Shown here piece after piece: positions 4,119 to 59,534 of a DNA stretch of 64,000 bases; the first letter of the stretch is position 1, and each line of letters opens with the position of its first letter. This stretch comes from a virus: IMG/VR virus record IMGVR_UViG_3300005077_000747, positions 23,944 through 87,943 of that record. One strand, written 5' to 3'. Both the position numbers and the translations under genes were made by a program. The notes beneath the pieces were generated by a model. The model did no database searches. It worked only from the letters and a program-made list of their open reading frames with translations, and was not told the origin of the DNA.

Positions 4119-4379
4119 TTACATATAATCAGTGCTCGAACTTGTATCATAAGTACTAATGTAATCAGTTCCAGTAGTTGCAGTTGAGTCAGTCCAATTA
4201 GCTGTATACATGCGTACCTGGATTTTTTTACAGGCCTGGAATTCAGAGTATCCGTCGATCAAACAAGTTAATCTAGCTCCACATTCACCACATACGGGCC
4301 GCCTCCCACTACTGAATTGCAAGTGGCAGTGGCGGCAATAGAACTTGGCGCAGTAATGCATCTGGTCAAATTCTTCCAC
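4119..4379 (-). CDS. small Zn-ribbon protein, CxxCxxR[LVI]xCL family
   Basis: CRHCHLQ...CGECGARLTCL. Confidence 0.6.
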   Translation of the reverse strand: MEEFDQMHYCAKFYCRHCHLQFSSGRRPVCGECGARLTCLIDGYSEFQACKKIQVRMYTANWTDSTATTGTDYISTYDTSSSTDYM

Positions 4380-4520
4380 TTAGTAATACCAGCAGTCAGA
4401 TAGCTTGTCACAATGAGGACAATATATTCTTGCTTCCCAATAAGGGACAGCCTCTCGAAGATGTTGCCACCTTAAATAATTTGGAGGATTTGGAGGACCG
4501 GTGTTTTTCCCATTATTCAT
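4380..4520 (-). CDS. small CPHC protein (46 aa)
   Basis: Hand-translated: MNNGKNTGPP...RIYCPHCDKLSDCWYY. Stop TAA abuts GTG start of the next gene. Confidence 0.35.
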   Translation of the reverse strand: MNNGKNTGPPNPPNYLRWQHLREAVPYWEARIYCPHCDKLSDCWYY

Positions 4521-4580
4521 GTGTCAAATATCTCTCTAAAGAGATGCGCATTGCGGGGGTCCAAATTTAGTATGGCCCCC
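4521..4580 (-). promoter_or_regulatory. conserved upstream element: palindrome ATCTCTCTAAAGAGAT plus G5/C5 hairpin (copy 1)
   Basis: GTGTCAAATATCTCTCTAAAGAGATG.GC...GGGGGT.CAA..T.TTT..ATGGCCC recurs at 34437..34496; sits immediately 5' of a gene start. Confidence 0.45.
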
Positions 4581-4624
4581 TAAAAAATATTTTTTAATGA
4601 TCACGGGTTGACGGACCATCTCCA

Positions 4625-4954
4625 TCATTGAGGATAAACTAAATCTGAATCCGAGTCAGGGATAAATACGAAGCGATAGATTTTAATCGTTTGGAAATTT
4701 TCATCGACTTCACATTCAGCCCCAATAAACCCCCAACCTCTTTCATCAATTCCAAACAAGCCATTTATTAAGCCTAAGGGACTAATCCTAAATGACCCAT
4801 CAGAGAGCTCAAGGCCAGACTGAATCGTTGGATGGTCAGCCAAAGCTTTGTTGCATGGGATGCGGATATTAAGTAAATTTGTAATGGCCTCGGGATCAGC
4901 TTCGAGGGCTTCATTTAAAACATCAATTGCGGCCTGAATTTGTTCTTTCTGCAA
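4625..4954 (-). CDS. hypothetical protein
   Basis: Minus ORF 109 aa in co-directional array. Confidence 0.5.
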   Translation of the reverse strand: MQKEQIQAAIDVLNEALEADPEAITNLLNIRIPCNKALADHPTIQSGLELSDGSFRISPLGLINGLFGIDERGWGFIGAECEVDENFQTIKIYRFVFIPDSDSDLVYPQ

Positions 4955-5342
4955 GGCGGTTATCCTCCTCTACACCTTCTCTTATCTGATTTAATACTTC
5001 TATAACTATGTCCAAGTCATCCCTACAGTTAAATGCAGATGCAATTACAGAAGTAAATTTATCTAATCCAACTGAAAGGCATGATATGCGGTACCGACAA
5101 CGACTACATCTATCTAAATCATCTACGACATGTATCGCTGCATTACACAACATGCAGCGAGTGCTACATATATATGTGTATGCAGGACCAGGTGTAGAGT
5201 AATCAAAAGTAAATGTTAATTTATTGCATGTGGGGCATTGAAAGAATATATGTCTAAACACCGGTGCTGCTCTACGTAAATGTTTATGAGTGTGTTTCAT
5301 CTTTACAATCTCGAGGTAGCAACTCGAATCTGCTCTCCCCAT
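4923..5342 (-). CDS. small Zn-ribbon protein, CxxCxxR[LVI]xCL family
   Basis: CPTC...CSTRCMLC...CSRCRYRISCL. Confidence 0.6.
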   Translation of the reverse strand: MGRADSSCYLEIVKMKHTHKHLRRAAPVFRHIFFQCPTCNKLTFTFDYSTPGPAYTYICSTRCMLCNAAIHVVDDLDRCSRCRYRISCLSVGLDKFTSVIASAFNCRDDLDIVIEVLNQIREGVEEDNRLAERTNSGRN

Positions 5343-5688
5343 CCTTCAATCCTAAGCTATATTCTATCTGTCTCATTACACCATGAACCTCGAGTGTATC
5401 GAGGAGACTAAAGATAGACATCGCAATGACTGGTGAATGTGTCAAGCAATCAACCAGCCGATCTTTGCAAAGCGTGCATCTCTCGGAGCTATCTACAACC
5501 AAACATTCACCACCACAATATCTGCAGGTTGTAAAGCATTTATAATCACCCTGCTCTTCATCAACCCAGTACCAGTACCTAGAATAGGAAACACGATCAC
5601 AATTGGGACAAAGAAAGAATTCATAAGTCCTGCGTCGAAAAAAATCAAGCTCAGGTTTTGTCTTACCTGCGTCTATTTTTACGGCCAT
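5284..5688 (-). CDS. small Zn-ribbon protein, CxxCxxR[LVI]xCL family
   Basis: CPNC...CRYCGGEC...CTLCKDRLVDCLTHSP. Confidence 0.6.
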   Translation of the reverse strand: MAVKIDAGKTKPELDFFRRRTYEFFLCPNCDRVSYSRYWYWVDEEQGDYKCFTTCRYCGGECLVVDSSERCTLCKDRLVDCLTHSPVIAMSIFSLLDTLEVHGVMRQIEYSLGLKDGESRFELLPRDCKDETHS

Positions 5689-6010
5689 TGTTAATAGATC
5701 CCCCTAACGTCCTTCTGATTTTAGCCTGCGCCTTTCTTATTCCCGATGCAGTTAAACGCTTGGCAGACATAGCTATAATACACGTAATGCATCTATCAAA
5801 GAGGCACTCTAATCGATCCTTGCAGTCGATGCACCTTTCAATAGCATCGACTGCCCTAACTTCTTTGCCACAATTACCACACAGTGTTGAACAAATATAA
5901 TTTTCGCCGAGGGTTTTTGCTGTATAAAAAGTGTGGTCGACGTTACCACAGTAAGGACATTCAAAGAACTCAATAACTTCTCGCTCGTCGTCCCTATCGG
6001 ATATATACAT
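5663..6010 (-). CDS. small Zn-ribbon protein, CxxCxxR[LVI]xCL family
   Basis: CPYC...CGNCG...CIDCKDRLECL. Confidence 0.6.
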   Translation of the reverse strand: MYISDRDDEREVIEFFECPYCGNVDHTFYTAKTLGENYICSTLCGNCGKEVRAVDAIERCIDCKDRLECLFDRCITCIIAMSAKRLTASGIRKAQAKIRRTLGGSINNGRKNRRR

Positions 6011-7063: not shown

Positions 7064-7465
7064 CTAATAATGAATCCCTCGAACAGCTTCTGGCCACGTA
7101 AGGCATGAGATTTTATGCCTACAATTTCTGCAACCCTTCCTGGGCTTTTTATGTACAATGCATGTCCCACACCAAATACACGATATGAGACATTGCTTTC
7201 GAAGACTTGGATGGCTGTATCTCGATGGGTATTTCATGCATCGACCACATAGAGGACATTCAATCCCCTCTACTTGTACCGCACCGAGATGATGTAATTT
7301 AAAAGCCGTTGGGAATCGGGTGCGCTTGAATTTAGCCTTAGCCTCCACCTTAGTATCTGCTTTAATGACTTCGCTTGCCCCATTGTAATCAATGTCATCG
7401 GTATACAAACAAGATACAAGGAAAAATGTGGGCATTATTTTTGCACCGTGGATACAAATATCCAA
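7064..7465 (-). CDS. small Zn-ribbon protein, CxxCxxR[LVI]xCL family
   Basis: CPLCGRC...CIWCGTC...CRNCRHKISCLTWP. Confidence 0.55.
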   Translation of the reverse strand: MDICIHGAKIMPTFFLVSCLYTDDIDYNGASEVIKADTKVEAKAKFKRTRFPTAFKLHHLGAVQVEGIECPLCGRCMKYPSRYSHPSLRKQCLISCIWCGTCIVHKKPRKGCRNCRHKISCLTWPEAVRGIHY

Positions 7466-9710: not shown

Positions 9711-10313
9711 TTAATAGCTAGCCCATGACGAGATTCTAAAAAAGTCAACCCAGAAATCATTGACATGTACGGGGAACTTTGCTCGCTTCCTAATTTGAAC
9801 TCGAGATAAATTTGACAAGGCTACTAACCCATAATCAGTTATATAAAATCGAATCAATTGCTTCGAACCTCTGAACTCTGGTAACTCAGCCCGGAGTAAG
9901 CCAAGCATCAAAGCGATAGCTAATTCTTTACCCCGTGTAGAGAGCCTCTCATATAAAACTCCCGGGTTCTGTAATACATGAAGCAATACGTTGTGTAATC
10001 TTCCCCTACCTGGAGCACTATGTATCGGATCTTCTCTTTTTTGTTTAATGTAATCACTTAACGTTCTTTTCGTCTGCACCTGAACAATGGCTTTCGTGAG
10101 ACATGACAATCTGTCTCTACATCTATTACACTCCGCAGTATCAAAAACTACTTTAAGATTCGGTCTTGACCCCCCTGAAATTATAGTTTGTTGTTTCCAG
10201 TGGAACTCGCATTGAGGATTTGTACAATAAACCGATTCACAAAAATGTTGGGCATATCTAATAATCCTCTCTGTACCACACCCCGGACACGTATAGGTGT
10301 GCATATCATTCAA
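9711..10313 (-). CDS. Zn-ribbon (CxxCxxR[LVI]xCL family) fused to C-terminal domain of unknown function
   Basis: CPGCG...CTNPQC...CNRCRDRLSCL followed by ~110 aa extra. Confidence 0.55.
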   Translation of the reverse strand: MNDMHTYTCPGCGTERIIRYAQHFCESVYCTNPQCEFHWKQQTIISGGSRPNLKVVFDTAECNRCRDRLSCLTKAIVQVQTKRTLSDYIKQKREDPIHSAPGRGRLHNVLLHVLQNPGVLYERLSTRGKELAIALMLGLLRAELPEFRGSKQLIRFYITDYGLVALSNLSRVQIRKRAKFPVHVNDFWVDFFRISSWASY

Positions 10314-10584: not shown

Positions 10585-11205
10585 TTATGAGAGAAACTCC
10601 TTAAGTTGGGCGAGGCCGGAGCAAATTAGGCTGCGGACGCGTTGCTTTGAGAGCTTAAAACTCCCTGCTATATCGGCAATAGGTAACGCTTCGCAGCCTA
10701 GACCTGCATACATAATGATCATACGTTTAGTTCGAACGTCTAAATGTTCGAGTGCCTGCATTATTGAGACACGATTGATGACCATCTCTTCATGCGATAT
10801 TGAATCAGTGGTTGTAGAATTTTCGGCGGGGGTTTTTAAAAGAGGTAAGATAAGTGCAAATTCGGGAGACTCTTCATCGCCCTCTCCCCGTCGGATGCGA
10901 TTAACAGTTTTGTTTAGATTTAAGGGTACCCGACAGGGGAAACGAGTCTCGCGGATTACTTTGATCATTTCATGTTGGACCCAAGAAGTTGCAAACGAAA
11001 TAAATTTCGATTCACGGTTCTCGTCATACTTCTTGGCAGCTTTTAGTAAGCCCAACATCCCCGCGTTAACAAGATCTCCAAAAGGTACACCACTTGACGC
11101 GTACTTATTTGCCATAGAATAAACAAAACCCCTGTTATCGAGGACGAGGTTCTGTTCAATCTCCCGGCGAGTCAGCTCTGTCACAATATAATCCTCCCAT
11201 AACAC
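10585..11205 (-). CDS. sigma-70 family RNA polymerase sigma factor
   Basis: Region 2-like FISFATSWVQHEMIKVIRE and region 4 HTH IADIAGSFKLSKQRVRSL. Confidence 0.7.
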   Translation of the reverse strand: MLWEDYIVTELTRREIEQNLVLDNRGFVYSMANKYASSGVPFGDLVNAGMLGLLKAAKKYDENRESKFISFATSWVQHEMIKVIRETRFPCRVPLNLNKTVNRIRRGEGDEESPEFALILPLLKTPAENSTTTDSISHEEMVINRVSIMQALEHLDVRTKRMIIMYAGLGCEALPIADIAGSFKLSKQRVRSLICSGLAQLKEFLS

Positions 11206-11299: not shown

Positions 11300-11638
11300 T
11301 CATTCCCACCGAGTTAGCCGGCGAGGCTTAATGAGCGAATAAGGTTTCCACATCTTCCTTGTATGAATAGTTGCGATCCCATTTGCACGACAATCCATTA
11401 CAATATTGCACAATCCATCCTGTGCTTTAACGCAGAAATCTTCAGCAGGAATTATACGAAACGCTTCCCAACAACGTTCACGTCTAACTGGTTGGCATGT
11501 TTCGACGACATAATTATATATGTGTAACATTCCACATTTAGGACACGTAAAAAATCTCTCGATATATGGCTTCTCTTGAACCTTGCGGTTAGGAATATAA
11601 ATGTCGCCAACATAGTCATTATCTACAATATCATCCAT
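11300..11638 (-). CDS. Cys-rich hypothetical protein
   Basis: CPKCG...C...C..C in 112 aa. Confidence 0.45.
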   Translation of the reverse strand: MDDIVDNDYVGDIYIPNRKVQEKPYIERFFTCPKCGMLHIYNYVVETCQPVRRERCWEAFRIIPAEDFCVKAQDGLCNIVMDCRANGIATIHTRKMWKPYSLIKPRRLTRWE

Positions 11639-12556: not shown

Positions 12557-12961
12557 CTACTCCGATGCTAGACATTCGATTCGCATATCACATTCAGAAC
12601 ACTTTCGATAAAAGCAAAGACGAAGCAACTTCCTACAGTCTCTACATTCCTGTAATCGGGGTTTGGAAAACATTTTAACGGTGTAAAGTTCCTTACATTG
12701 GGGGCAAGATACTTCCTCAAAGATCACTACAGATACCCAGCTCTCAACTGGAGGGACTACATGATTCGCATCAAAGCTCTCTCTAAGTGTAATGTGAATC
12801 CCTGATTTGTGCATCTTCTGAGATTCACTAACCCATTTTTCAAATCTCAGGAATCTATTCACAGCGGCCTTGAAGTCCTTAGCTCGAATCCTAAGTTCAC
12901 AATATGGCCAACCCTGATTATCATTGACTTGGAAAATGAATCGACGCGTTTTGGTTTTCAC
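12557..12961 (-). CDS. small Zn-ribbon protein, CxxCxxR[LVI]xCL family
   Basis: CPQC...CRDC...CSECDMRIECL. Confidence 0.6.
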   Translation of the reverse strand: MKTKTRRFIFQVNDNQGWPYCELRIRAKDFKAAVNRFLRFEKWVSESQKMHKSGIHITLRESFDANHVVPPVESWVSVVIFEEVSCPQCKELYTVKMFSKPRLQECRDCRKLLRLCFYRKCSECDMRIECLASE

Positions 12962-13732: not shown

Positions 13733-13883
13733 AAATCCTCCTAATCGATGGTTAAAAAAATAATAAAGTGGTTTTGTTTCATAACTTAATTTGAATTGGA
13801 AACTGAGGAGGATTCAGTAAGAGAGAAAAATTCTTGGCGGTGAGTAAGAGATTTGAACTCCTAGAGCTATTACACTCGGCGAC

Positions 13884-14141
13884 TTAGCAAGCCGCTGCCT
13901 TTACCAATTCGGCCAACTCACCACTCCATGCAACTTTTGATACAGGGGAGGCGTTTGGAAGAGCCGTGAATACGAGAACTCTCTCTCCCTTCTCCTTGCT
14001 GAACTCTTTCAAATAAAGTTTAAACCCCTCATTATGCATATACTTAATAACAGTACTATCAAGAGTCTCATTTACGCCACTCGTGTGTGAATAATGAACT
14101 GCTACGCACAACCTAACCTCTGTTTGTACTAATGAATCCAT
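13884..14141 (-). CDS. hypothetical protein
   Basis: Minus ORF 85 aa. Confidence 0.4.
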   Translation of the reverse strand: MDSLVQTEVRLCVAVHYSHTSGVNETLDSTVIKYMHNEGFKLYLKEFSKEKGERVLVFTALPNASPVSKVAWSGELAELVKAAAC

Positions 14142-14152
14142 TTAATGTCTCC

Positions 14153-14344
14153 CTAAATTTGGTATTGACAATATTGGGAGCAGTAAGCAGGCAAGCATGG
14201 AGGCCTTTCTGCTACTACACATTGTACTCTCATAGTACATTCATTACAGTTTACAACGAATGGGAAATCAAGTCCACACCTTTCACAGTGCCCGGTCAAG
14301 TAAGTAAATTTACATTCCCGGTAAGTTGTCCCACTGAGCTGCAT
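14153..14344 (-). CDS. small Zn-ribbon protein, family variant
   Basis: CERCG...CNECTMRVQCV. Confidence 0.5.
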   Translation of the reverse strand: MQLSGTTYRECKFTYLTGHCERCGLDFPFVVNCNECTMRVQCVVAERPPCLPAYCSQYCQYQI

Positions 14345-14707
14345 CTATCCTTCCTTCTCGGCCTTCAACTCCTTGAGAAAGTCATTTAATTTCGCAATCC
14401 TTGCAGCCCACAACTCAGAAATTTCTGGGGCCAAAAAATCGTAGTGGATGGGGATCAAGGGTATATTATTTCCATCAACTGAAGTCCATTCAATAAACTT
14501 GTCGAGGAAATCTGCCTTCGGTGTTGGTTCATTCTTGAGAACTTTAACAGAGATAACTTTGAGGTCGGTCTCATGTAGAAACTCTCCCCATATATTTAGC
14601 GTCCACTCTTTTACATCTTCCGCAACTCCACCTTCAAAAAAGATGCGCTCAGTGTGAACTATATCACTATTGAGCCTGAACTTCACTTCAAACCATGTCT
14701 TACCCAT
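14345..14707 (-). CDS. hypothetical protein
   Basis: Minus ORF 120 aa. Confidence 0.5.
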   Translation of the reverse strand: MGKTWFEVKFRLNSDIVHTERIFFEGGVAEDVKEWTLNIWGEFLHETDLKVISVKVLKNEPTPKADFLDKFIEWTSVDGNNIPLIPIHYDFLAPEISELWAARIAKLNDFLKELKAEKEG

Positions 14708-14721
14708 AAAAACTCCTCAGT

Positions 14722-14799
14722 TGGCACCGAGGACAGGAGTCGAACCTGCATCATAAGGTTTTGGAGACCTCATCGCTAATCCTCAGGACATGCCCCGGC
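14722..14799 (-). tRNA. tRNA-Trp (anticodon CCA)
   Basis: Reverse complement GCCGGGG...GAGGTCTCCAAAACCTT...GCAGGTTCGACTCCTGT CCTCGGTGCCA. Anticodon arm matches bacterial tRNA-Trp; D-arm is non-canonical. Confidence 0.6.
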
Positions 14800-14825
14800 T
14801 CTTGTATTAATATTTCTTGACATTC

Positions 14826-15104
14826 CTACTCCATTTTCAATACTTTACTCTCGATTAAATTGCGGGCCATAATTCTTAATCCTTCTATCTCACAAGCGAG
14901 ACATGTATAACATGATTTAGTACAATCACCATGATGAGCAGGGTATCTCTCGTGCGCCTCTAAAAACTCTTTCTTCCACTTGGTGTTGTATAAGTATTCA
15001 ACATGCTCTTCATGCTTATCCGGGTCTTCAACATAATCACCAAGCCAATCAATTACCAATAGAAGCCCAGCGATTATATCTTCGAGTTCTTCGCTCTTAC
15101 TCAA
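14826..15104 (-). CDS. hypothetical protein
   Basis: Minus ORF 92 aa. Confidence 0.45.
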   Translation of the reverse strand: MSKSEELEDIIAGLLLVIDWLGDYVEDPDKHEEHVEYLYNTKWKKEFLEAHERYPAHHGDCTKSCYTCLACEIEGLRIMARNLIESKVLKME

Positions 15105-15309
15105 GTCTTAACACTCCTCTTTCTCTCAAGCGCCTGAGTAGATAGATTTGAGATTCAACACTAATGATGATACCCATACGAATGACATTGTTGAATGCAT
15201 TCGTCGTCTTGTCATTCATCAGCTCCTCAATCGGATCGCCTCCAGTATTTCCAATTAAATCCCTAAAAGGCTCCATCCACGCAGGCATAGTCCAATTTTC
15301 CCTACTCAT
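15097..15309 (-). CDS. hypothetical protein
   Basis: Minus ORF 70 aa. Confidence 0.4.
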   Translation of the reverse strand: MSRENWTMPAWMEPFRDLIGNTGGDPIEELMNDKTTNAFNNVIRMGIIISVESQIYLLRRLRERGVLRLE

Positions 15310-15337
15310 AGCTTGTCTCCTCTTAAGCCCTTTTGAA

Positions 15338-15414
15338 TGGTGATCCTGACGGGATTCAAACCCGTGTCACCAGATTGAAAGTCTCGTATCCTAACCAAGC
15401 TAGACGACAGGATC
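15338..15414 (-). tRNA. tRNA-Glu (anticodon UUC)
   Basis: rc GATCCTG...CGAGA CTTTCAA TCTGG...ACGGGTTTGAATCCCGT CAGGATC A CCA. Acceptor and T-arm clean; one G-G mismatch in anticodon stem. Confidence 0.55.
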
Positions 15415-15419
15415 ATTAA

Positions 15420-15498
15420 TGGCAGTCTGTACGGGATTTGAACCCGCGACCTCTGACTTGACAGGCTAGCGCTCTAGGCCAAACTGAGCTAACAGACT
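15420..15498 (-). tRNA. tRNA-Asp (anticodon GUC)
   Basis: rc AGTCTGT TA GCTCAGTTTGGCCTAGAGC ... CCTGTCAA ... GGTCGCGGGTTCAAATCCCGT ACAGACT G CCA. Close to the E. coli tRNA-Asp T-arm. Confidence 0.6.
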
Positions 15499-48580: not shown

Positions 48581-48982
48581 TCACCTCCGATAAAGTTTAG
48601 CTACCACATCCTCAAAAGTCAACCCCGTAAGTCGTTTAAAAACCTCCTCATCGGCACCTGGGGAGTCTTGTATATGTACCTCCTTCCCGCCAGCCGCAGG
48701 GATTTTCTTGATAAAGTAAACACCTTGCCTTGACCCATTACATACATGCCATACAACTTTATTGTAGCAGGGATTAAGGGAAACTAAACATGCAACTCGT
48801 TCATCACACTTCTCACACAGTTTGGCACTCGCTGCGTTTGAAGTTATTACAGTTATTTCTAAACACGGATGCTCAACAGTATTACACTCGCACCACTCAT
48901 AATAAACCTGATTTACTCTGGTCTTTATATAGATCATCCTACTCATTAGGTCCCTGCTCTTTCTTACACAATTCACATTCAC
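48581..48982 (-). CDS. Zn-ribbon family protein
   Basis: CEKCDERVACLVSLNPC. Confidence 0.55.
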   Translation of the reverse strand: MNVNCVRKSRDLMSRMIYIKTRVNQVYYEWCECNTVEHPCLEITVITSNAASAKLCEKCDERVACLVSLNPCYNKVVWHVCNGSRQGVYFIKKIPAAGGKEVHIQDSPGADEEVFKRLTGLTFEDVVAKLYRR

Positions 48983-49133: not shown

Positions 49134-49673
49134 TCACCAATGTACTTTCTTTGCTCTTTCAACCCAGTATAAATTTAGCTCGTACTCTACTTGAATAAAC
49201 TTCGGGCGCATGTTTCCAATCCGAATCACGCCAGTGCCCCTAATACACCCATTTCCAGTGTAGTCACGATACGCATGGAAAAACTTATCAGTTCCATTAA
49301 GAATTCTCAACGCCCGTATCCCCAGCTCTGTTATTCGGTACGTCCCTCCTCTCCCTTCCAATCTCGAGCGAGCAATAAGTCCTCCGACTAATAATTGGAG
49401 GACATATAAATGAGTATTGCTAAACCGAATATCTCGGAGCGGAACTTCTCCAAACCTATCAAGAAATGCTAAAGTACGGTGTGCATTAGACCCCTGCAGG
49501 ATTGAGAACTTTTGAGTTTCCAAAAGCCTCCACACCCACCTACGATGCCAGGGCATTTTACAGGTATGGCCTCCCAAGCATGAAACACGCTTCATACATG
49601 TTTCGCATACAAGCATATTTCCAATAGCCCCTTTTCGGGTGTAATAAGTTCCGCTCCGCATTCTACATCTCAC
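49134..49673 (-). CDS. protein with N-terminal CxxCxxR[LVI]xCL motif + C-terminal domain
   Basis: MLVCETCMKRVSCLGGHTC... Confidence 0.5.
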   Translation of the reverse strand: MRCRMRSGTYYTRKGAIGNMLVCETCMKRVSCLGGHTCKMPWHRRWVWRLLETQKFSILQGSNAHRTLAFLDRFGEVPLRDIRFSNTHLYVLQLLVGGLIARSRLEGRGGTYRITELGIRALRILNGTDKFFHAYRDYTGNGCIRGTGVIRIGNMRPKFIQVEYELNLYWVERAKKVHW

Positions 49674-50170: not shown

Positions 50171-50344
50171 CCTCCTCTATTTTGTAGTAAAGAATAATAT
50201 CGTACCGCTGCTTATTAACCCCATACGTATTCTGTATGCGTGATGATCAATAAATTCTAACGCCTCCGATGACAATGTTACTGAAGGGATAACAAGACAC
50301 TCGAGTCTCTCTTTACACTCCTTACAACGTTCATTTGCGTTCAT
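50171..50344 (-). CDS. small protein with N-terminal family motif (MNANERCKECKERLECL...)
   Basis: Hand-translated, 57 aa; below the ORF-track threshold. Confidence 0.35.
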
Positions 50345-50432: not shown

Positions 50433-50681
50433 TTACATTTTACTATTAAAGGATCCATCAGCATTTCTCTGGAAGTAACCTAACAGATCGGCGGCACCCC
50501 ACGTCTGGATACAATGTTCACAAAAATAAGTAAAGGCACAAACATTTCCAGCGAGACATTGTACCCGTCCATCACAAATATCACAACAGCCTAAGCGAAT
50601 AAAGAAATGGTCACCGCACCACATGCAGCTATTTTCTTGGCTCATGTCCATACATCCGAACGTATACTCGATGTATTGCAT
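50433..50681 (-). CDS. small Zn-ribbon protein, CxxCxxR[LVI]xCL family
   Basis: CMWCG...CCDICDGRVQCL...CEHC. Confidence 0.55.
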   Translation of the reverse strand: MQYIEYTFGCMDMSQENSCMWCGDHFFIRLGCCDICDGRVQCLAGNVCAFTYFCEHCIQTWGAADLLGYFQRNADGSFNSKM

Positions 50682-50853
50682 TGACTTCTTCAGTGGTATA
50701 TGCTAAATCAATGTTCTTGATGATCCCAAGTAACTGCTCTTCAGTTTTCTCCCTCCACATTTCCATAGCCCATGTATCTGCATTTCTCATGAAACCTCCT
50801 CCACCTCTATAACAGCTAACGGGTTTGCAAAACAATCGACACGACCAAGACAA
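50629..50853 (-). CDS. hypothetical protein
   Basis: Minus ORF 74 aa overlapping neighbours. Confidence 0.35.
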   Translation of the reverse strand: MSWSCRLFCKPVSCYRGGGGFMRNADTWAMEMWREKTEEQLLGIIKNIDLAYTTEEVNAIHRVYVRMYGHEPRK

Positions 50854-50990
50854 TTAGAACAGTCAGTACCATTTACAATTACTCTTGCTCTACACTGATT
50901 ACATCTAGCCCAACAATACGCGGGTATGTGCTCGACTGTTTCAACCAATAAATCTTTACACACCGGACAATAGAACTTATAAACCTTCAT
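50787..50990 (-). CDS. small Zn-ribbon protein, family
   Basis: CPVC...CNQC...CSNCLGRVDCFANPLAV. Confidence 0.55.
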   Translation of the reverse strand: MKVYKFYCPVCKDLLVETVEHIPAYCWARCNQCRARVIVNGTDCSNCLGRVDCFANPLAVIEVEEVS

Positions 50991-51312
50991 TACATCTTCC
51001 AGGAACCGCTAAGCACTTAATCCTATCAAGACACTCCTCACACGTCAAATCATACAAACGACATACCCTAATTACCATTTTACATGAAGGACATTGACAT
51101 ACCCCTCTAATCGGTTCAGACCATAAAATGAGTTGTGCACCACAATGTGGACAAGGGTAATCTAATTGAGCTATTAATTCTTGCCCACCCGAACAGGATT
51201 GCAATGCTTGTGGAAAGTGAAAGTAGCTGCCCCCAGAGCGTTTAATACACAAACCCTCATTATGATCCTTATAGTAAATCGTTCCGTAATACTCTAGGAT
51301 TCGCTTACTCAA
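50977..51312 (-). CDS. small Zn-ribbon protein, family
   Basis: CPHCG...CPSC...CEECLDRIKCLAVPG. Confidence 0.55.
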   Translation of the reverse strand: MSKRILEYYGTIYYKDHNEGLCIKRSGGSYFHFPQALQSCSGGQELIAQLDYPCPHCGAQLILWSEPIRGVCQCPSCKMVIRVCRLYDLTCEECLDRIKCLAVPGRCNEGL

Positions 51313-51709
51313 TTACCTCCCCTTCACCCGCGAACGTTAATTTACATCTACGTACCTCTGGTAATCTTTCAATCACCTCAAGAACATCTGACAACCCGAA
51401 GAAGAACTTAGGGCTTACCGCGAAGTTAATTTCATCAGGCACTTCATATACAACAGGGGTATGAGGACATTCCGCTCCAACAATGCATAATAGCCGCCTA
51501 TCACAGATCGTGCATGGATTCTCATAGCGGCTTGCCAACCGTGGTATATCCGTCTCGTTTACGACCTCTTTAAGTTCCTGGTTGTAAAACTTTACCCGCA
51601 ACAAGTATTCAATCACTGGCTTCCTGAACTCATTGAATATTTGTTGGATGGAGTCGAACATTACATCCTCGAAGCAATTATCATCCTCTCGGTAGATCAG
51701 GTACTTCAT
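51305..51709 (-). CDS. Zn-ribbon family protein
   Basis: CTICDRRLLCIVGAECPH. Confidence 0.5.
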   Translation of the reverse strand: MKYLIYREDDNCFEDVMFDSIQQIFNEFRKPVIEYLLRVKFYNQELKEVVNETDIPRLASRYENPCTICDRRLLCIVGAECPHTPVVYEVPDEINFAVSPKFFFGLSDVLEVIERLPEVRRCKLTFAGEGEVIE

Positions 51710-52022: not shown

Positions 52023-52296
52023 TACTTCTAAAAAAGTCCAGGTTTGTTGGCTTAATCAGCATCTTCAGCTTTATGCTTGACCTCCCATCCCTGCAGTCCT
52101 TACTGGCCTTTAAATGCTCCTTCATAGGAATGTCAGCCTTATTAAACAGATCTGTATAAATGGACCCCCCTATAGGCACCTTACCGAATTTAAATCCACA
52201 ATAAGGACAGTAGATTTCCAAGTCCCTGCCCGTTTGTTTAACCGCAACGATAAACTCCATCCCCATCAAGATATCATGAATATCCATAATCTTCAT
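52003..52296 (-). CDS. small protein with CPYCG knuckle
   Basis: Minus ORF 97 aa. Confidence 0.4.
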   Translation of the reverse strand: MKIMDIHDILMGMEFIVAVKQTGRDLEIYCPYCGFKFGKVPIGGSIYTDLFNKADIPMKEHLKASKDCRDGRSSIKLKMLIKPTNLDFFRSIGIDVE

Positions 52297-52492
52297 CTCC
52301 TCTATCCGCTACGGGAAAAATAAGACATCTTAACCGACCAATACATGTGTCACATTCAGGGGCCTCCACTGTTTTAAATGTCGTCCCACATGAAGCACAA
52401 CAATAAACAATGCAATACTTCCACCTTGCATACCTCACCTTAGCTCCGCATGAAGGGCATATACTCATTCCACCTCCTTCGCGGTCAGACAT
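52274..52492 (-). CDS. small Zn-ribbon protein, family
   Basis: CPSCG...CASCG...CDTCIGRLRCLIFPVAD. Confidence 0.55.
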   Translation of the reverse strand: MSDREGGGMSICPSCGAKVRYARWKYCIVYCCASCGTTFKTVEAPECDTCIGRLRCLIFPVADRGDEDYGYS

Positions 52493-52809
52493 ATATGTTC
52501 ATTCAAGAACAGAGTGTGTATACCTTCTTCATGGTAGTATTCCTTCCAACTACGTATTGACTTAATACACATCAGTGTTTTAAGATCCACTGGTATATGT
52601 ATCTGATCACAACACAGATTTAATGAGCTCCCCACCGCGGGAACAAATACACAATCCTCTGGGGTATTGATACCTCCCTTAATTAAATACCCAGCCTCTC
52701 CACTTTCATACACATGAGGTGTCGAAAGGAATTTAATACCACATCCACCATTTTGAACTATGCAATCCAACCTATTCCTACAATGATTACAATTCAAATC
52801 GGTTGTCAT
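52465..52809 (-). CDS. protein with N-terminal family motif
   Basis: MTTDLNCNHCRNRLDCIVQNGGC. Confidence 0.5.
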   Translation of the reverse strand: MTTDLNCNHCRNRLDCIVQNGGCGIKFLSTPHVYESGEAGYLIKGGINTPEDCVFVPAVGSSLNLCCDQIHIPVDLKTLMCIKSIRSWKEYYHEEGIHTLFLNEHICLTAKEVE

Positions 52810-53009
52810 TTTTCTACCTCAAATGTAGACATGGTTAAACAAGAGAGCTTATGGACACAAGATTCGCACTCCGTGTAATGAATAATACTCCAAACCCCAC
52901 AACTACATTGATACCTACAAGGAAACGTTTCTATAAACCCGAAGAAACTAATCCCGGCCTTACATGACGGACATATAAACCTGTACGACTTTGGTCTCTT
53001 CATAACCAT
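52806..53009 (-). CDS. small Zn-ribbon protein, family
   Basis: CPSC...CSCG...CESCVHKLSCL. Confidence 0.55.
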   Translation of the reverse strand: MVMKRPKSYRFICPSCKAGISFFGFIETFPCRYQCSCGVWSIIHYTECESCVHKLSCLTMSTFEVEK

Positions 53010-53233
53010 TTATGAGTCCCTGCAACTATCGTGTCTGCAGTCACTTCCTTGTATTCCGTAACTCGTTTCATACCTAAACATGTAACTCTCAGGCAACATT
53101 CATCACAATTATCTAAAGGTATGGCAAATGATTCACCACACCCACATTCTTTAAAACAACAGGTACTGTGGAAGATTTTTATCTCTCCACAGGCCGGACA
53201 TTTGAAAATTATGAATTCATGTTCTACGCCCAT
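53000..53233 (-). CDS. small Zn-ribbon protein, family
   Basis: CPACG...CGCG...CDECCLRVTCL. Confidence 0.55.
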   Translation of the reverse strand: MGVEHEFIIFKCPACGEIKIFHSTCCFKECGCGESFAIPLDNCDECCLRVTCLGMKRVTEYKEVTADTIVAGTHKWL

Positions 53234-53463
53234 TCTTCATACTCCTCAATGGTGTACGGTGTGATATCGGTAGGTCTAGCATATGCTAAACACTCTACTC
53301 GTTTATGGCAACCACTGCAATCAACATCTTCTCTAACGTTCATTAAGTTATCACATTCTTCACAAACCGTTAAGCACATAATAGTGGGTGTTATAATAAT
53401 GAATCCACAATATGGACACGTATACCTAAACAAGTCAACGTCTTTCACTTCCCATCTACTCAT
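53224..53463 (-). CDS. small Zn-ribbon protein, family
   Basis: CPYCG...CEEC...CSGCHKRVECLAYARP. Confidence 0.55.
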   Translation of the reverse strand: MSRWEVKDVDLFRYTCPYCGFIIITPTIMCLTVCEECDNLMNVREDVDCSGCHKRVECLAYARPTDITPYTIEEYEEWA

Positions 53464-53469
53464 CTTAGT

Positions 53470-53871
53470 TTACACTCCATCCGCATCTCTTAACAAACAT
53501 TTAACCCTATGCATACATTCTTCACAATCATCACACACTATAAACTTTTCGTGACAATCAAAACACTTGATCATCTTTCCAGCCCAACTAAGTAATAGGT
53601 ATGATTTGAATCCACAATGTGGGCAGACTTGTTCAATGTAGAGTTTCTTTGGAGAGCGAAACTTGAAGTCTTGGGAGGGGCCGAAGTTCCGATCAATATC
53701 CAAGGTAGGCGCTTGAACTTCTATGAAGGCATTGTTCTTAAACAATGATACAAGACTTGAATACACCACTCTGGCTTCCATGGTGTTACGGGCACTAAAA
53801 CTAAACCGGGTTAACATTACTCTAGTATTGCCCCACATATCTTCGCTGAACCCGAATTGATACCTTGGCAT
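53470..53871 (-). CDS. Zn-ribbon family protein
   Basis: CPHCG...CFDC...CDDCEECMHRVKCL. Confidence 0.55.
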   Translation of the reverse strand: MPRYQFGFSEDMWGNTRVMLTRFSFSARNTMEARVVYSSLVSLFKNNAFIEVQAPTLDIDRNFGPSQDFKFRSPKKLYIEQVCPHCGFKSYLLLSWAGKMIKCFDCHEKFIVCDDCEECMHRVKCLLRDADGV

Positions 53872-53881: not shown

Positions 53882-54097
53882 CTATATAATTGCCCGTGGC
53901 GTTATCAAACATTCAAGCCTCTTTTCGCACCCATCACATTCAACAGGATCAGTGACAAGGATTTGAATGGTAAGACAGAAGATACAACATGTTCTGCATG
54001 ATAATGGCTTTGTGCGAGATGAAATCAACAAACTCATCCCACAACCCACGCAAACATAATCGTATCCATGTTTACCAACCACCTGCACGGATTTCAT
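53882..54097 (-). CDS. small Zn-ribbon protein, family
   Basis: CVGCG...CRTCC...CDGCEKRLECLITPRA; first gene behind promoter 54118..54148. Confidence 0.55.
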   Translation of the reverse strand: MKSVQVVGKHGYDYVCVGCGMSLLISSRTKPLSCRTCCIFCLTIQILVTDPVECDGCEKRLECLITPRAII

Positions 54098-54800: not shown

Positions 54801-55316
54801 TTATCCCCAACCCTTTTTGAGGATCAATATCATCTGAAAGATCCCTGAACCAGCTTCATCATAGTGTTGGAATGAATGAACGTTTTCATCATCGATCTCG
54901 ATAGAGACCGTAGCAAAAACCCATTTACTAAAGACCTGTTTCATATTAGTCAACCATTCCCTAACCGAAACAGTTATGAGTTCATCCTTCTCAGGATCAT
55001 ACCACTGGTTATAATCCTTTATGATTAACGTCGATCTATCTTTCGTTATACGATCAATTTCGTCTGCAATACTTTGGCGTTCGCCGAAACTGCAACTATA
55101 CAGTCCAAACGAGTACCACACCATATCATATTCTTTGTCTTCGGCGGGTGTTGGATTTTCTGTACTGGCATGTTGCAAATAAATTACTTGATCAGTTATA
55201 GCTCCAACACTTTTGCATTCCTCAATGTCTTCTTCGGTTAAGTTCCCACAACACAAGTCAGCTCCAGGAAGTTGCGTTGCAGGTTCATACCCCGTACCCA
55301 AATCTAATACTTTCAT
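54801..55316 (-). CDS. possible small SAM-dependent methyltransferase-like protein
   Basis: N-terminal VLDLGTGYE resembles class-I MTase motif I; weak. Confidence 0.35.
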   Translation of the reverse strand: MKVLDLGTGYEPATQLPGADLCCGNLTEEDIEECKSVGAITDQVIYLQHASTENPTPAEDKEYDMVWYSFGLYSCSFGERQSIADEIDRITKDRSTLIIKDYNQWYDPEKDELITVSVREWLTNMKQVFSKWVFATVSIEIDDENVHSFQHYDEAGSGIFQMILILKKGWG

Positions 55317-55540
55317 TTAGTCCCTCCTACGGGTAAGACATTTAACTCGATGTTTACATACATCACACGCATCCATCTTCTCATCAACGTTATGTTACAC
55401 CGATCACAACTCATCATACACATTGGATTACCATCATACCACTCTTCAAAGAAGAGTGACTTTGTTGTCTTACATTCTGGACAAGTAACACCAAGATACT
55501 CCGCAGACAAAATATGTTCCTTAAAATTAAACTCTGACAT
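55313..55540 (-). CDS. small Zn-ribbon protein
   Basis: CPECK...CDRC. Confidence 0.45.
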   Translation of the reverse strand: MSEFNFKEHILSAEYLGVTCPECKTTKSLFFEEWYDGNPMCMMSCDRCNITLMRRWMRVMYVNIELNVLPVGGTK

Positions 55541-55770
55541 TACTCGTTCTCACCATCTCTAAGTGTCCAATCTTTCCAATCGCCCTCTGTCGTTATAGTA
55601 ATTGGCGGTTTCGCCACGCAACTAAGACGTGACTTACATTCGTCACACTTCTCTGTCCATCGTACAAACAACGTCTTACAACCCAAACAAAAAAAGGAAT
55701 TCGGACAGGCCGGAGAGGCAACTATAGTCTGTTCACATTTAGGACAGGCATCTTTAAAGAAGACCGGCAT
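55540..55770 (-). CDS. small Zn-ribbon protein, family
   Basis: CPKCE...CLGCK...CDECKSRLSCVAKPPIT. Confidence 0.55.
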   Translation of the reverse strand: MPVFFKDACPKCEQTIVASPACPNSFFCLGCKTLFVRWTEKCDECKSRLSCVAKPPITITTEGDWKDWTLRDGENE

Positions 55771-57590: not shown

Positions 57591-58199
57591 TTAATCGTTA
57601 ACTAAATTGTTCCATAGGTTATGAAGCTCACTACCATACATAACCGTACCGATAAGGATGTCATGCTTTTTCAATAGCCACGCCTGGATGGCGGCATTTA
57701 AAGTGCTTCCCGAAACTGAAACGCCACAGCAGGTGTTAGATCCAATCTCACCCAATGCCAAGCTAACCCCAACAGGGACTTTAGAGTCCTCATCATGAAA
57801 TTCTATTTGGGGTTCGAATCCGAGTTGCTTGAAACGTGCTACAATCAACTCAAGCCGTTTGGACTCATTGAACAACGAACTTGGAGTCTTAAGTTGATTG
57901 AGAAACTCGACATCGGCAATCAGGAAGCAATCTGTCGCATGTGCAGGGTAGAGAAAGTAGTCGGCCTTCCAAAGGTTGGCATCGTTGAGAGTGTAGAAGT
58001 AGTTGGGAGGAGTCTTAATCTCGATGTCATATAAAACTTCATCACACTCAACCAACAGGATCTCAACGCACGACATAACTTCATCCACGGGGATTCCCTC
58101 TCCAAAGTCACTCCTTAACCCTGTTGCAACTAAATCATAGAAGCAGGATCCAGAAAGGCAATTAACTTTTCGGATTGGGCAGGTCTCACAATCTCTCAT
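57591..58199 (-). CDS. protein with N-terminal family motif + larger domain
   Basis: MRDCETCPIRKVNCLSGSC... Confidence 0.5.
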   Translation of the reverse strand: MRDCETCPIRKVNCLSGSCFYDLVATGLRSDFGEGIPVDEVMSCVEILLVECDEVLYDIEIKTPPNYFYTLNDANLWKADYFLYPAHATDCFLIADVEFLNQLKTPSSLFNESKRLELIVARFKQLGFEPQIEFHDEDSKVPVGVSLALGEIGSNTCCGVSVSGSTLNAAIQAWLLKKHDILIGTVMYGSELHNLWNNLVND

Positions 58200-58510
58200 T
58201 GGTCACACACCTCTCTTTGGAAACATGTCTTACAGTCCCGAGCTGGATCGGCTTTACAGAAGTAAAACCACTTCGTCCCGTCCTTACGATCCTGCCAATG
58301 AACTTTAACCTTGGGCCAAGCCAGTTGGGGCATGTCCTTAAGAGCCGACCAGATACGATCATATCGATCGTCGAAAGGAAGTTCCTGGAGGAGTGACTTG
58401 CAAAGTAACCTCGCGGCATGGACTGCTCGCACTCGAGGAATCCTTTTTGCGATTGACATGTCCTGCCACTTTACGAACACTTGAATCAGCCTGCCGATAA
58501 ATTCATCCAT
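58196..58510 (-). CDS. hypothetical protein with C-terminal C-x2-C-x5-C variant
   Basis: ...CKTCFQREVCDQ. Confidence 0.45.
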   Translation of the reverse strand: MDEFIGRLIQVFVKWQDMSIAKRIPRVRAVHAARLLCKSLLQELPFDDRYDRIWSALKDMPQLAWPKVKVHWQDRKDGTKWFYFCKADPARDCKTCFQREVCDQ

Positions 58511-58512
58511 AG

Positions 58513-58758
58513 CTATCTCCTCCTTAATACTTCAACGTGTCGTGCGTTACGGGTCCAATGCCATTCCTCAAATCTGTGGGCGAACCTGGATACAATGTGG
58601 AACGCTTGAGAGATTCGAGCTCGAGGGGGAAGGTGGGTAAGTTTATCTCTAATTTCAAATACCAGGACATCCCGTTGAATCTCTGTAACCCCCTTGGCCG
58701 TTAAGTTGTTTAAACACTCAGCCATTAAATCCATTACATTTGGTCCTTGTACCATCAT
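58513..58758 (-). CDS. hypothetical protein
   Basis: Minus ORF 81 aa. Confidence 0.4.
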   Translation of the reverse strand: MMVQGPNVMDLMAECLNNLTAKGVTEIQRDVLVFEIRDKLTHLPPRARISQAFHIVSRFAHRFEEWHWTRNARHVEVLRRR

Positions 58759-58774
58759 GACATATCACCTCCTC

Positions 58775-59248
58775 TCAAATCAAATCATCTTCAGAGACAT
58801 ATACAGGCTTGGCATGAGGAGTTGTTAAGCACGCCAATCTTTCTGAGCACGCATCACAACCACCTTGATCTCTCTTAATGTATCCCTGGATGACGATGAA
58901 CTTCTTGCCACATGACCTACAGTGGCCGAAACAGGTTTCCCATTTAGAACTAAGTGGAAACCATTGTTCATGTTCACAATCTGGGCATCGCCAGGCTAGC
59001 TCCGCCTTCCAGCTTTGGGGATCCGCTTTGTGCATCGTTGCGGATCCAAGCTCCGGGGGACTCACTATAACATCTCCGTGCTTGAGAGCATCGTGCATTT
59101 GCTTTCTAGCATTAACGATGTTAGTCGCGGGCTGGCAGATTGGAACGACTAAGGGGACATGGAAGCGGAACTTTAGAAACCTAGGTTTCTTTTTCACCAC
59201 AACCTCCTTTCTACGTTGGGAATGGATAAGGGTAGTACAGGGGAACAT
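58775..59248 (-). CDS. Zn-ribbon family protein
   Basis: CPDCE...CRSCG...CDACSERLACLTTPHAK. Confidence 0.55.
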   Translation of the reverse strand: MFPCTTLIHSQRRKEVVVKKKPRFLKFRFHVPLVVPICQPATNIVNARKQMHDALKHGDVIVSPPELGSATMHKADPQSWKAELAWRCPDCEHEQWFPLSSKWETCFGHCRSCGKKFIVIQGYIKRDQGGCDACSERLACLTTPHAKPVYVSEDDLI

Positions 59249-59534
59249 CGAATCCGGATCTTATTCCATACTCGACTAAGTCACATACGGATTGAAGGCG
59301 ATTACCTTCAGACCAGTATTGCTGACTCATTAGAACCCCTTCAGGAAGGAAGTAAAGCACTGTCAACAGTTCGGTACTAAATCGAGGTTTGATGAACAGC
59401 ATCGTTGGAGTCATACTGTCCCGAAGATACTCACATTGATATGGGTGCCCCGTATCATCTATTAGCATTCCAAGTTCAGGGCTGACCATACAATCGAGCC
59501 TACGTTCACACCATTCACAAATGTGTTTGTTCAT
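59211..59534 (-). CDS. protein with N-terminal family motif
   Basis: MNKHICEWCERRLDCMVSPELG. Confidence 0.5.
   Translation of the reverse strand: MNKHICEWCERRLDCMVSPELGMLIDDTGHPYQCEYLRDSMTPTMLFIKPRFSTELLTVLYFLPEGVLMSQQYWSEGNRLQSVCDLVEYGIRSGFDVPLYYPYPFPT

Follow-up and report, generated by a model that had tools for sequence, protein, structure and literature searches.

A large family of small cysteine-rich, zinc-ribbon-like proteins in the genome of an uncultivated tailed phage

Introduction

The DNA analysed here, called the window in the following, comprises 64,000 nucleotides (positions 23,944 to 87,943) of the viral record IMGVR_UViG_3300005077_000747. It covers the greater part of the genome of an uncultivated tailed phage. 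With a contig of 88 kb, this is not a jumbo phage; the phage origin assumed in a first-pass annotation was confirmed. The window has a G+C content of 43%, and each of its genes is encoded on the minus strand. About one third of these genes code for one family of small Cys-rich proteins, which is the subject of this study. Its hallmark is the motif C-x2-C-x2-R-[LVI]-x-C-L, termed the knuckle.

Results

A family of about 50 genes

In the three minus-strand frames of the window, 40 matches to the strict signature C-x2-C-x2-[RK]-x2-C-[LIMFV] were counted, and in the three plus-strand frames not a single one. A relaxed pattern with two to three residues before the last Cys has 44 matches, exclusively on the minus strand. 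The called genes contain 36 strict copies, whereas 500 within-protein residue shuffles, in which the Cys content was kept, gave a mean of 0.088 and a maximum of 2. A profile hidden Markov model (HMM) was built from 69 members from within and outside the window. At E<0.01 it matched 47 minus-strand open reading frame (ORF) segments and none on the plus strand, and it contributed eight divergent copies beyond those found by pattern search. The pattern counts and these divergent copies result in a total of about 50 family members among approximately 141 minus-strand genes. The invariant Arg of the knuckle is encoded by all six Arg codons and the Leu by at least five codons, the mean nucleotide identity across the 33-nucleotide (nt) motif is 53% between copies, and no DNA repeat family covering the copies was found in the window. 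It follows that the conservation lies at the protein level.

These results agree with the first-pass annotation, which had proposed a genuine and very large paralogous family of about 50 copies, making up one third of the genes and conserved as protein. Three of its details were corrected. The knuckle had been described as the end of the proteins; it is C-terminal in 22 of the 39 called carriers, but internal in 11 and N-terminal in 6. A Pro thought to follow often at the third residue after the last Cys is present at the fourth, and in just 13 of 40 copies. Finally, the interval 4119-59534, to which the family had been assigned, encloses 42 of the 44 relaxed matches, but two further possible copies lie outside it, at 836-1237 (doubtful) and at 63594-63740.

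Chance, composition bias or non-coding repeats read in frame could in principle generate such a pattern, and the minus-strand frames are indeed generally rich in Cys. This is the only argument for an artefact. It is refuted by the strand asymmetry, by the shuffle expectation of 0.09, by codons that vary between copies not covered by any DNA repeat family, and by orthologues on other contigs that are under purifying selection (see below). It is very probable that the family is a real and undescribed derivative of the zinc ribbon with metal-binding capacity, the latter judged from its Cys pattern.

The members are listed below. Class A denotes a member with the full eight-Cys domain, knuckle sequences are given in one-letter code, lengths are in amino acids (aa), and HMM is added to divergent copies matched by the profile and wherever an E-value is available.

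4119-4379 (-): member, 86 aa, CGECGARLTCL, reduced ribbon
4923-5342 (-): class A (8 Cys), 139 aa, CSRCRYRISCL, HMM E 2e-15
5284-5688 (-): class A, 134 aa, CTLCKDRLVDCL
5663-6010 (-): class A, 115 aa, CIDCKDRLECL
7064-7465 (-): class A with N-terminal extension, 133 aa, CRNCRHKISCL
9711-10313 (-): class A followed by a winged-helix-like domain, 200 aa, CNRCRDRLSCL
11300-11638 (-): divergent member, ribbon intact, knuckle degenerate, HMM E 7e-4
12557-12961 (-): class A with N-terminal extension, CSECDMRIECL, fifth Cys after knuckle 2
14153-14344 (-): member, 63 aa, CNECTMRVQCV
17262-17705 (-): divergent knuckle CDDCDLHVECL (His replaces Arg), Cys downstream, HMM
19775-20035 (-): class A, 86 aa, CEYCRQRVDCL, between VWA and AAA genes
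21922-22245 (-): class A, 107 aa, CSKCADRVTCL, adjoins the radical SAM gene
24837-25205 (-): class A, 122 aa, CRFCILRVECL
27498-27749 (-): class A, 83 aa, CDKCGRKVSCL
30395-30649 (-): class A, 84 aa, CTVCKDRLKCL
35563-35967 (-): divergent class A, CPCRHVEVDCL, HMM E 3e-3
35888-36310 (-): winged-helix-like domain, then minimal knuckle CSRCFKRIDCL-x5-C
36845-37195 (-): class A, CSTCNSRVDCL
37026-37373 (-): class A, 115 aa, CHKCYKRFDCL
37373-37648 (-): member, 91 aa, CDDCPDRLKCL-x6-C
37641-37898 (-): divergent class A, CRSDCGYRVECM, C-x3-C, HMM
38477-38683 (-): class A, 68 aa, CKVCPNRLQCI, orthologue in L002
38777-39016 (-): divergent class A, CSKCEALSVDCL, Arg lost, HMM E 4e-13
40693-41022 (-): class A, 109 aa, CVTCRHRGIECL
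43353-43859 (-): N-terminal minimal knuckle CETCDKRLECL and C-terminal fragment resembling an ABC-ATPase C-lobe
43953-44477 (-): divergent, C-terminal degenerate domain ...SCYHKVDCL, HMM E 2e-5
44474-44728 (-): member, 84 aa, CEKCSRRITCL-x5-C
45287-46231 (-): 314-aa protein with C-terminal class A domain, CDLCEDRIRCL
46635-46940 (-): divergent class A, CKQCECPERLKHCW, HMM
46891-47331 (-): class A with N-terminal extension, CKQCRRKLDCL
48581-48982 (-): member, internal knuckle CEKCDERVACL-x6-C
49134-49673 (-): N-terminal minimal knuckle CETCMKRVSCL-x5-C and winged-helix-like domain
50177-50344 (-): member, 55 aa from the first ATG (upstream Cys in the same open frame), CKECKERLECL
50433-50681 (-): member, 82 aa, CDICDGRVQCL-x5-C
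50787-50990 (-): class A, 67 aa, CSNCLGRVDCF, sequence used for modelling
50977-51312 (-): class A, CEECLDRIKCL
51305-51709 (-): 134-aa protein, internal minimal knuckle CTICDRRLLCI-x5-C
52274-52492 (-): class A, 72 aa, CDTCIGRLRCL
52465-52809 (-): N-terminal minimal knuckle CNHCRNRLDCI-x6-C and unrelated domain
52806-53009 (-): class A, 67 aa, CESCVHKLSCL
53000-53233 (-): class A, 77 aa, CDECCLRVTCL
53224-53463 (-): class A, 79 aa, CSGCHKRVECL
53470-53871 (-): class A with N-terminal extension, CEECMHRVKCL
53882-54097 (-): class A, 71 aa, CDGCEKRLECL
55313-55540 (-): class A split by a frameshift, knuckle CDVCKHRVKCL in the other frame
55540-55770 (-): class A, 76 aa, CDECKSRLSCV
57591-58199 (-): N-terminal minimal knuckle CETCPIRKVNCL-x4-C and 185-aa unrelated domain
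58196-58510 (-): C-terminal knuckle variant CKTCFQREVCDQ, directly before the stop codon
58775-59248 (-): class A with N-terminal extension, CDACSERLACL, orthologues in L002, L003 and L004
59211-59534 (-): N-terminal minimal knuckle CEWCERRLDCM, syntenic orthologue in L002
63594-63740 (-): possible copy CKFCRYRIDCL-x5-C, upstream start codon not found

In the copy at 55313-55540, the ribbon (CPEC...C-x3-C-x2-C) and the knuckle lie in different frames; this could be due to a pseudogene, an assembly error or programmed frameshifting.

Domain architecture and predicted fold

The core domain comprises about 60 aa with eight conserved Cys. Approximately 27 members share the layout CPxC(G), 12-25 residues, C-x3/4-C-x2-C, 9-15 residues, C-x2-C-x2-R-[LVI]-x-C-L. 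In the alignment of the 69 sequences, C5, C8, C41, C44 and C50 are invariant, C23, C27 and C30 are at least 90% conserved, and 68 sequences contain at least eight Cys. The N-terminal half displays the two CxxC pairs, at predicted hairpin turns, that characterize a generic zinc ribbon (CPxC and CxxC, each at least 90% conserved), and the ribbon-like arrangement with an additional Cys noted in the first pass is reproduced by the alignment. The position of the fifth, "floating" Cys shifts: the spacing is C-x3/4-C-x2-C in 42 sequences and C-x2-C-x4/6-C in others, and the residue is absent in just one. It is usually located 3-4 residues before the second knuckle of the ribbon and sometimes after it. 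This positional compensation suggests that the three Cys of the C-terminal knuckle need a fourth ligand, which implies two Cys4 sites. According to this sequence logic, site 1 would be the zinc ribbon and site 2 would consist of the floating Cys and the knuckle.

In 40 of 44 copies, the Cys of the knuckle follow the spacing C-x2-C-x5-C, and one more Cys lies remote from them. Where a member has no more than four Cys, these are arranged as C-x19-C-x2-C-x5-C, a pattern conserved over three related contigs (L002, L003 and L004). About a dozen members form a minimal-knuckle class, in which the knuckle is usually complemented by one more Cys, either 4-6 residues further downstream or upstream at a distance of about 19 residues; this minimal knuckle caps the N- or C-terminus of unrelated domains. 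Besides the ligands, the Arg, the Leu and a strand of Pro and hydrophobic residues after the motif are conserved, and the remaining positions vary. The net charge of the domain spans -8 to +13 (25 of the 69 aligned sequences are net acidic, 7 are neutral), and Cys accounts for 7.6% of the family's residues.

Modelling of the member at 50787-50990 by means of AlphaFold2 (AF2) with the 69-sequence alignment gave a predicted local distance difference test score (pLDDT) of 77 and a predicted template modelling score (pTM) of 0.60. In a first model, based on 25 sequences, four short strands were predicted together with a helix spanning R47-C50 and a strand at the C-terminus. In the model from the deeper alignment, two strands are resolved as elements, and the helix and the C-terminal strand are retained. 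Short strands flank both CxxC knuckles in the first model and the second knuckle alone in the other. The predicted C-terminal strand would explain the conserved Pro and the hydrophobic residues following the motif.

The fusion partners of the members at 9711, 35888 and 49134 share a winged-helix-like domain of about 70 residues. The pattern is weak (HTH_45, E 0.13), and a comparison with the PDB did not confirm the assignment for the three domains. The fusion protein at 43353-43859 (-) comprises 168 aa with the knuckle at residues 10-20. Its last approximately 55 residues match the C-lobe of the defence ABC ATPases NsnB, AriA (PARIS), GajA, PtuA and PD-T4-4 A; the PADLOC matches have E-values of 1e-4 to 5e-2, and none spans the N-terminal half of the ATPase. 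The protein may be a decoy or poison subunit directed against ABC-ATPase defences.

Five class A members (7064-7465, 12557-12961, 46891-47331, 53470-53871 and 58775-59248, all on the minus strand) carry N-terminal extensions of about 70-110 aa. By eye, these seem to follow a common strand-helix-strand pattern, F-x-F-x-V ... A-x3-A-x3-F, and they may be an additional domain, so far unrecognised, by which a subfamily is defined. The extension of 58775 is conserved in the non-window proteins P0036, P0040, P0057 and P0059, and P0127 has an N-terminal extension as well.

Distribution and evolution

A HMMER search of 1.84 billion cluster representatives yielded 287 matches with E <=1e-3. The best 150 of these 287 comprise 14 window proteins, about 55 other small proteins with the eight-Cys architecture and the knuckle, and, as the remainder, generic multi-finger proteins that match the ribbon half alone. 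Ten non-window members were looked up; they stem from metagenomes only, and those with a name are annotated as 'hypothetical protein'. When 5.8 billion proteins were searched with the family profile by a word-indexed method, only two were recovered, both from the contig of the window, and a scan of metagenomes gave three short contigs only. The family is dense on the contigs L002 (IMG/VR, 41 kb; 12 copies in 16 kb) and L007 (JGI, 33 kb; 7 copies in 13 kb); L007 also carries the same radical SAM, VWA/AAA and metallopeptidase genes as the window. Two copies each were found on L003 and L004.

When one representative member was compared by tblastn with 50,697 records of cultured phages, no family member was detected, and this search gave no sign of the abundance in ordinary small phages that would have spoken against the first-pass annotation. 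The orthogroup of 58775 found nothing in 185,579 species genomes and hence provided no lead to a host or prophage. Scanning IMG/VR with the back-translated motif gave 9 chance matches and no family member, and a related-locus search with the AAA ATPase retrieved just a distant phage, L001, that is devoid of the family.

Even between the closest paralogues of the window, identity over the domain does not exceed 40%, which argues against recent duplications. The region 58.7-62.7 kb, including two family members, is syntenic with L002. For orthologue pairs of L002 and L003, the ratio of nonsynonymous to synonymous substitution rates (dN/dS) is 0.06 and 0.15, with dS near saturation. Low paralogue identity, synteny and low dN/dS indicate an old expansion with each copy under purifying selection. 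By these sequence comparisons, the family is an old, stably kept set of distinct genes, and its earlier description as fast-diverging is contradicted.

Putative promoters and neighbouring genes

The part of the window with the highest density of family genes, between 23 and 62 kb, contains ten intergenic elements of about 80 nt with the pattern TTGAtt-17-TATAAT, all on the coding strand:

23495-62265 (-): promoter-like elements at approximately 23.5, 29.8, 38.7, 43.9, 48.4, 48.5, 54.1, 55.9, 56.6 and 62.2 kb

Their consensus is GAGCC-ATTTTATT-nAGCC-TTGATTTTnAGCCnTTTGAGCCnT-TATAAT, that is, a near-consensus sigma-70 promoter combined with four AGCC boxes spaced by about one helical turn. The boxes could be an operator for a regulator of the phage or the host. 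In addition, AGGAGG is enriched 5' of start codons. From the promoter consensus alone we infer early transcription by the host RNA polymerase.

The phage genes of the window code for a primase, a DnaB-type helicase and a superfamily 2 (SF2) helicase. Also identified were an AAA protein that resembles FtsH, a phage metallopeptidase and two peptidoglycan hydrolases. The nearest cultured relatives of the conserved proteins are N4-like phages (23-43% identity), and a megablast comparison of 20 kb with cultured phages gave no nucleotide match. A sigma-70 family (ECF-like) factor at 10585-11205 (-) (Sigma70_r2 E 6e-14, r4 E 1e-4) is encoded two genes upstream of the winged-helix-fused member 9711-10313. 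Two paralogous gene pairs, at 18321-21273 and 59860-62149 (-), each consist of a MoxR-type AAA ATPase (phrog_1297) and a DUF2201 metallopeptidase-VWA protein (phrog_1314); the AAA genes are 76% identical over 90 nt (19045-19134 versus 60539-60628). Here as well as in L002 and L007, family genes flank or interleave the AAA/VWA pairs. A radical SAM / Fer4_12 protein is encoded at 21282-21962 (-), and a CxxCxxCC (PF03692) protein, putatively chelating zinc or iron, at 3562-4101 (-).

The gene at 30705-33266 (-) codes for an 853-aa full-length homologue of the eukaryotic major vault protein (MVP), with the homology detected over residues ~479-830 (Pfam MVP_shoulder E 3.6e-30; phmmer versus MVP chains of the PDB E 3e-13). 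Full-length MVP homologues with 42% identity exist in the uncultured huge phages LR756500 and LR756501 (462 kb and 735 kb). The first report of MVPs in phages is a preprint from 2023 (10.1101/2023.11.10.566534). Seven tRNA genes are clustered at 13835-17222 (-): Ser-GCT, Trp, Glu, Asp, Asn, Ser-TGA and Tyr. Despite the high Cys content of the family, tRNA-Cys is not in this cluster.

Three further observations concern other parts of the window. A Cys-free protein of 193 aa is encoded at 62781-63362 (-) and contains three tandem 54-nt (18-aa) repeats at 63175-63320; L002 has three paralogues of this gene in a row. A 37-nt sequence (GTGTCAAATATCTCTCTAAAGAGATG...) occurs at 4521-4557 and 34438-34474, 30 kb apart; the two copies are 89% identical, both are intergenic, and they include the short palindrome ATCTCT/AGAGAT. 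The gene of a Toprim-type primase at 2-826 (-) is truncated by the end of the window; the N-terminal zinc ribbon of this primase (CPKC...CFKCG) is a weak match to the family HMM (E 0.087). A derivation of the family ribbon from the zinc-binding domain of the primase is speculative.

Discussion

A two-metal mini-scaffold as the proposed role

Because nearly all non-ligand positions vary and the net charge spans such a wide range, we propose that the family is a two-metal mini-scaffold, derived from the zinc ribbon, that has diversified into early-expressed binding modules; we assign this reading as a whole a probability of about 0.5. Site 1 would be an ordinary zinc ribbon (CPxCG, 12-25 residues, CxxC), and site 2 would be made up of the invariant knuckle with its short helix and the floating Cys. 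Two metal ions, with zinc as the default, would staple a minimal fold and leave the surface free to diversify. The invariant Arg would neutralise the Cys4 site or form hydrogen bonds with it. The paralogues would serve as binding modules for different protein or nucleic-acid targets rather than as catalysts; made early from near-consensus sigma-70-type promoters, they would reprogramme the host or regulate the phage. Metal binding, two zinc ions, early expression and the binding role are elements that we infer from sequence. The possible role in host takeover, anti-defence or adaptor function put forward in the first pass is compatible with the putative sigma-70-type promoters and with the fusion to a predicted ABC-ATPase fragment.

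Several points weigh against this proposal. The spacing C-x2-C-x5-C is more typical of [4Fe-4S] clusters, as in WhiB-like (Wbl) proteins, Cas4/AddB and EndoIII, than of zinc sites, so the assumption of two zinc ions may be wrong. The confidence of the AF2 models is moderate, the Cys were assigned to the two sites by sequence logic, and the promoters were assigned by their consensus. Moreover, the age of the paralogues and the strong purifying selection would be explained by a fixed set of phage housekeeping proteins, such as regulators, no less well than by an arsenal shaped in an arms race.

Alternative explanations

The paralogues might instead be a set of regulators that recognise specific sequences in DNA or RNA, or else structural proteins that bind nucleic acid. 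Zinc ribbons commonly bind nucleic acid, three members are fused to a winged-helix-like domain, the Arg of the knuckle is invariant, and the putative promoters offer phased AGCC repeats as possible operator sites. A nucleic-acid-binding role has also been proposed for a ribbon expansion in Bacillus phage G (PMC7824862), and haloarchaeal viruses encode many small CxxC proteins outside their assembly module (PMC7911831). Yet the charge distribution, with 32 acidic or neutral domains among 69, is not expected for uniform nucleic-acid binders, the family of phage G differs in sequence and lacks the knuckle, and the Arg can equally be explained as a structural residue that neutralises the Cys4 site. 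On balance we regard this explanation as rather unlikely. The position of the minimal knuckle, at the very N- or C-terminal end of unrelated domains, suggests another interpretation, in which the knuckle is a docking or targeting tag that delivers unrelated proteins to a common partner such as the MVP homologue, the AAA+/VWA chaperone pairs or the capsid. It would account for the conservation of the non-ligand residues R, L and P over all paralogues, and the phage has both the MVP homologue and two MoxR-AAA/VWA pairs that adjoin family genes, as they do in L002 and L007. Most members, however, consist of the Cys8 domain alone and carry no cargo, and three Cys that are complemented by a compensating fourth point to a metal site in the first place. 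Furthermore, no family members were found within 20 kb on either side of the MVP genes in LR756500 and LR756501, the two huge phages in which a link to the vault protein was sought. The cultured phages that carry homologues of the two AAA ATPases are N4-like, and the tblastn search of the cultured-phage records with one family member found nothing. A tagging function is therefore very unlikely.

The cluster-like spacing of the knuckle leads to the possibility that site 2 binds a [4Fe-4S] cluster as in Wbl proteins, and that the paralogues dock to sigma factor or RNA polymerase or sense redox state or nitric oxide and in this way rewire transcription. The knuckle is in register with C37-x2-C40-x5-C46-L47 of WhiB1, and the four-Cys members add the upstream ligand in C-x19-C-x2-C-x5-C. 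The phage also encodes a radical SAM enzyme, and its sigma-70/ECF-like factor lies close to a winged-helix-fused member. Wbl proteins have four invariant Cys and 81-139 aa, exist as multiple paralogues and attach to the primary sigma factor at its region 4 (PMC6282962); spacing, small size and paralogue number of the family parallel these properties. On the other hand, hhalign gave a probability of 0.85% over 19 columns, and PF02467 remained unmatched in scans of 42 members even at E up to 10. The turn G[V/I]WGG, which in Wbl proteins universally follows the last Cys (PMC6282962), occurs in no minus-strand ORF segment of the window. The AF2 models show short beta-strands and one helix of 4-6 residues, that is, a beta-ribbon rather than a helical bundle, and no Wbl structure is among the PDB structural neighbours of the family model. 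Wbl proteins are confined to Actinobacteria and their phages (PMC6282962), whereas the genome studied here has 43% G+C and its relatives are N4-like phages of Proteobacteria. A Wbl-like module is thus unlikely. Quite unlikely as well, though viable because spacing and register equal those of Wbl proteins and the fourth ligand is positionally free as in iron-sulfur proteins, is a convergent solution: site 2 would be a genuine [4Fe-4S] or other redox centre, and the family a non-actinobacterial counterpart of the Wbl proteins whose approximately 50 mini-proteins dock different targets. These targets would be sigma factors, RNA polymerase or defence ATPases of host or phage. If this were true, about 50 cluster-bearing mini-proteins would couple takeover to the iron-sulfur or redox state of the cell. 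A cluster in the second site would make this the first Wbl-like system outside Actinobacteria.

Significance of the expansion

In this mid-sized phage, a single family accounts for about one gene in three, and related phages likewise carry it at high density. Through this one family, a single study of structure and biochemistry could give access to a large portion of viral dark matter. Returning to the proposed mini-scaffold, a fold of 60 residues pinned by two Cys4 sites would be a natural minimal and evolvable binding scaffold. Since the paralogues are old and under purifying selection, the approximately 50 copies presumably hold 50 distinct, maintained jobs, and identification of the targets would show by which routes phages of this clade exert control over their host.

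Comparison with known families and systems

Searches of Pfam, PHROGs, NCBIfam, PDB and BFVD gave no significant match; the family thus could not be placed in any well-characterised family, as had been anticipated. Its N-terminal half resembles the classical zinc ribbon of the RPA12/TFIIS C-terminal domains, S27e and LysW, which likewise have two CxxC on beta-hairpins (CPxCG...CxxC). Profile comparisons with the PDB ribbon proteins RPA12, S27e, TFIIS and LysW gave E-values of 1e-3 to 1e-2 over positions 2-36, and LysW, RPA12 and S27e are the best structural neighbours of the family model. Among named ribbon families, DZR matched 9 of 42 and Zn_ribbon_3 8 of 42 sequences, and ECs_2282, FmdB and Lar matched 6, 5 and 4 of 69; the best E-values were about 1e-4 to 5e-3, and all bit scores shown were below the curated cut-offs. 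DZR, Zn_ribbon_3/8, FmdB, Lar, ECs_2282, YacG and rubredoxin-like families all failed these cut-offs, which for FmdB, YacG and rubredoxin agrees with the first-pass annotation. The iron-staple nucleases of the Cas4/AddB type were considered and rejected: a single DUF2800 contact (E 0.27, 26 residues) was seen, and no member shows a nuclease domain, whereas in these enzymes C-xn-C-x2-C-x5-C flanks a nuclease domain of the PD-(D/E)XK type. Matches to DDE_Tnp_1_6 (E 0.01, one member) and to DUF2800, which might have indicated a wider CxxC-P-x-R-xx-C motif, were not reproduced across members.

The Wbl proteins share with the family the ligand spacing C-xn-C-x2-C-x5-C followed by Leu, the small size, the many paralogues per genome and the occurrence in phages. 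They differ in having the G[V/I]WGG turn and a helical bundle, whereas the family has a zinc ribbon and a non-actinobacterial context. Given the negligible hhalign probability, the absent turn and the non-helical predicted fold, the resemblance is a lead on metal chemistry, not on membership.

The closest precedent is Bacillus phage G, in which a small CPxC-type ribbon family, gp32-like, has been multiplied to about 35 copies (Iyer et al. 2021, PMC7824862). The two families are not the same. As read from gp32, gp34, gp35, gp37 and gp46 of NC_023719, the phage G proteins have four Cys (CPxC...C-x3-C), a KYWKENDRYLA tail and no knuckle. This tail is found in no window member, and the first 50 kb of phage G, where the genes gp32-gp46 are located, contain no knuckle copy within an ORF. 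The copy density also differs, with about 35 in 498 kb for phage G and about 50 in 64 kb here. Haloarchaeal viruses such as Hardycor1 resemble this phage in that CxxC proteins occur alongside a pair of AAA ATPase and vWA protein (PMC7911831). Their hosts are archaeal, and their hypothetical CxxC-motif proteins (10 of 53 genes) were not reported to form a family with a shared signature (PMC7911831).

Among cellular domains, IBR/RING2 of the RBR ubiquitin ligases likewise combines a zinc ribbon with a sequential second site within about 60 residues, and HOIP, HOIL-1, parkin, RNF216 and HHARI recur as weak structural neighbours. Neither the C6HC ligand pattern nor a significant structural match was found, and membership was rejected. 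The minimal knuckle C-x2-C-x5-C-x4-6-C can further be compared with the retroviral CCHC zinc knuckle C-x2-C-x4-H-x4-C: with four ligands in 16-17 residues, the phage unit is comparably compact. The phage knuckle is all-Cys, has spacers that are one residue longer and contains the invariant Arg and Leu. In summary, small ribbon proteins and their expansion in viruses are already known. New are the absence from the searched libraries, the Cys8 two-site architecture with its invariant knuckle, and a density that reaches one third of a genome.

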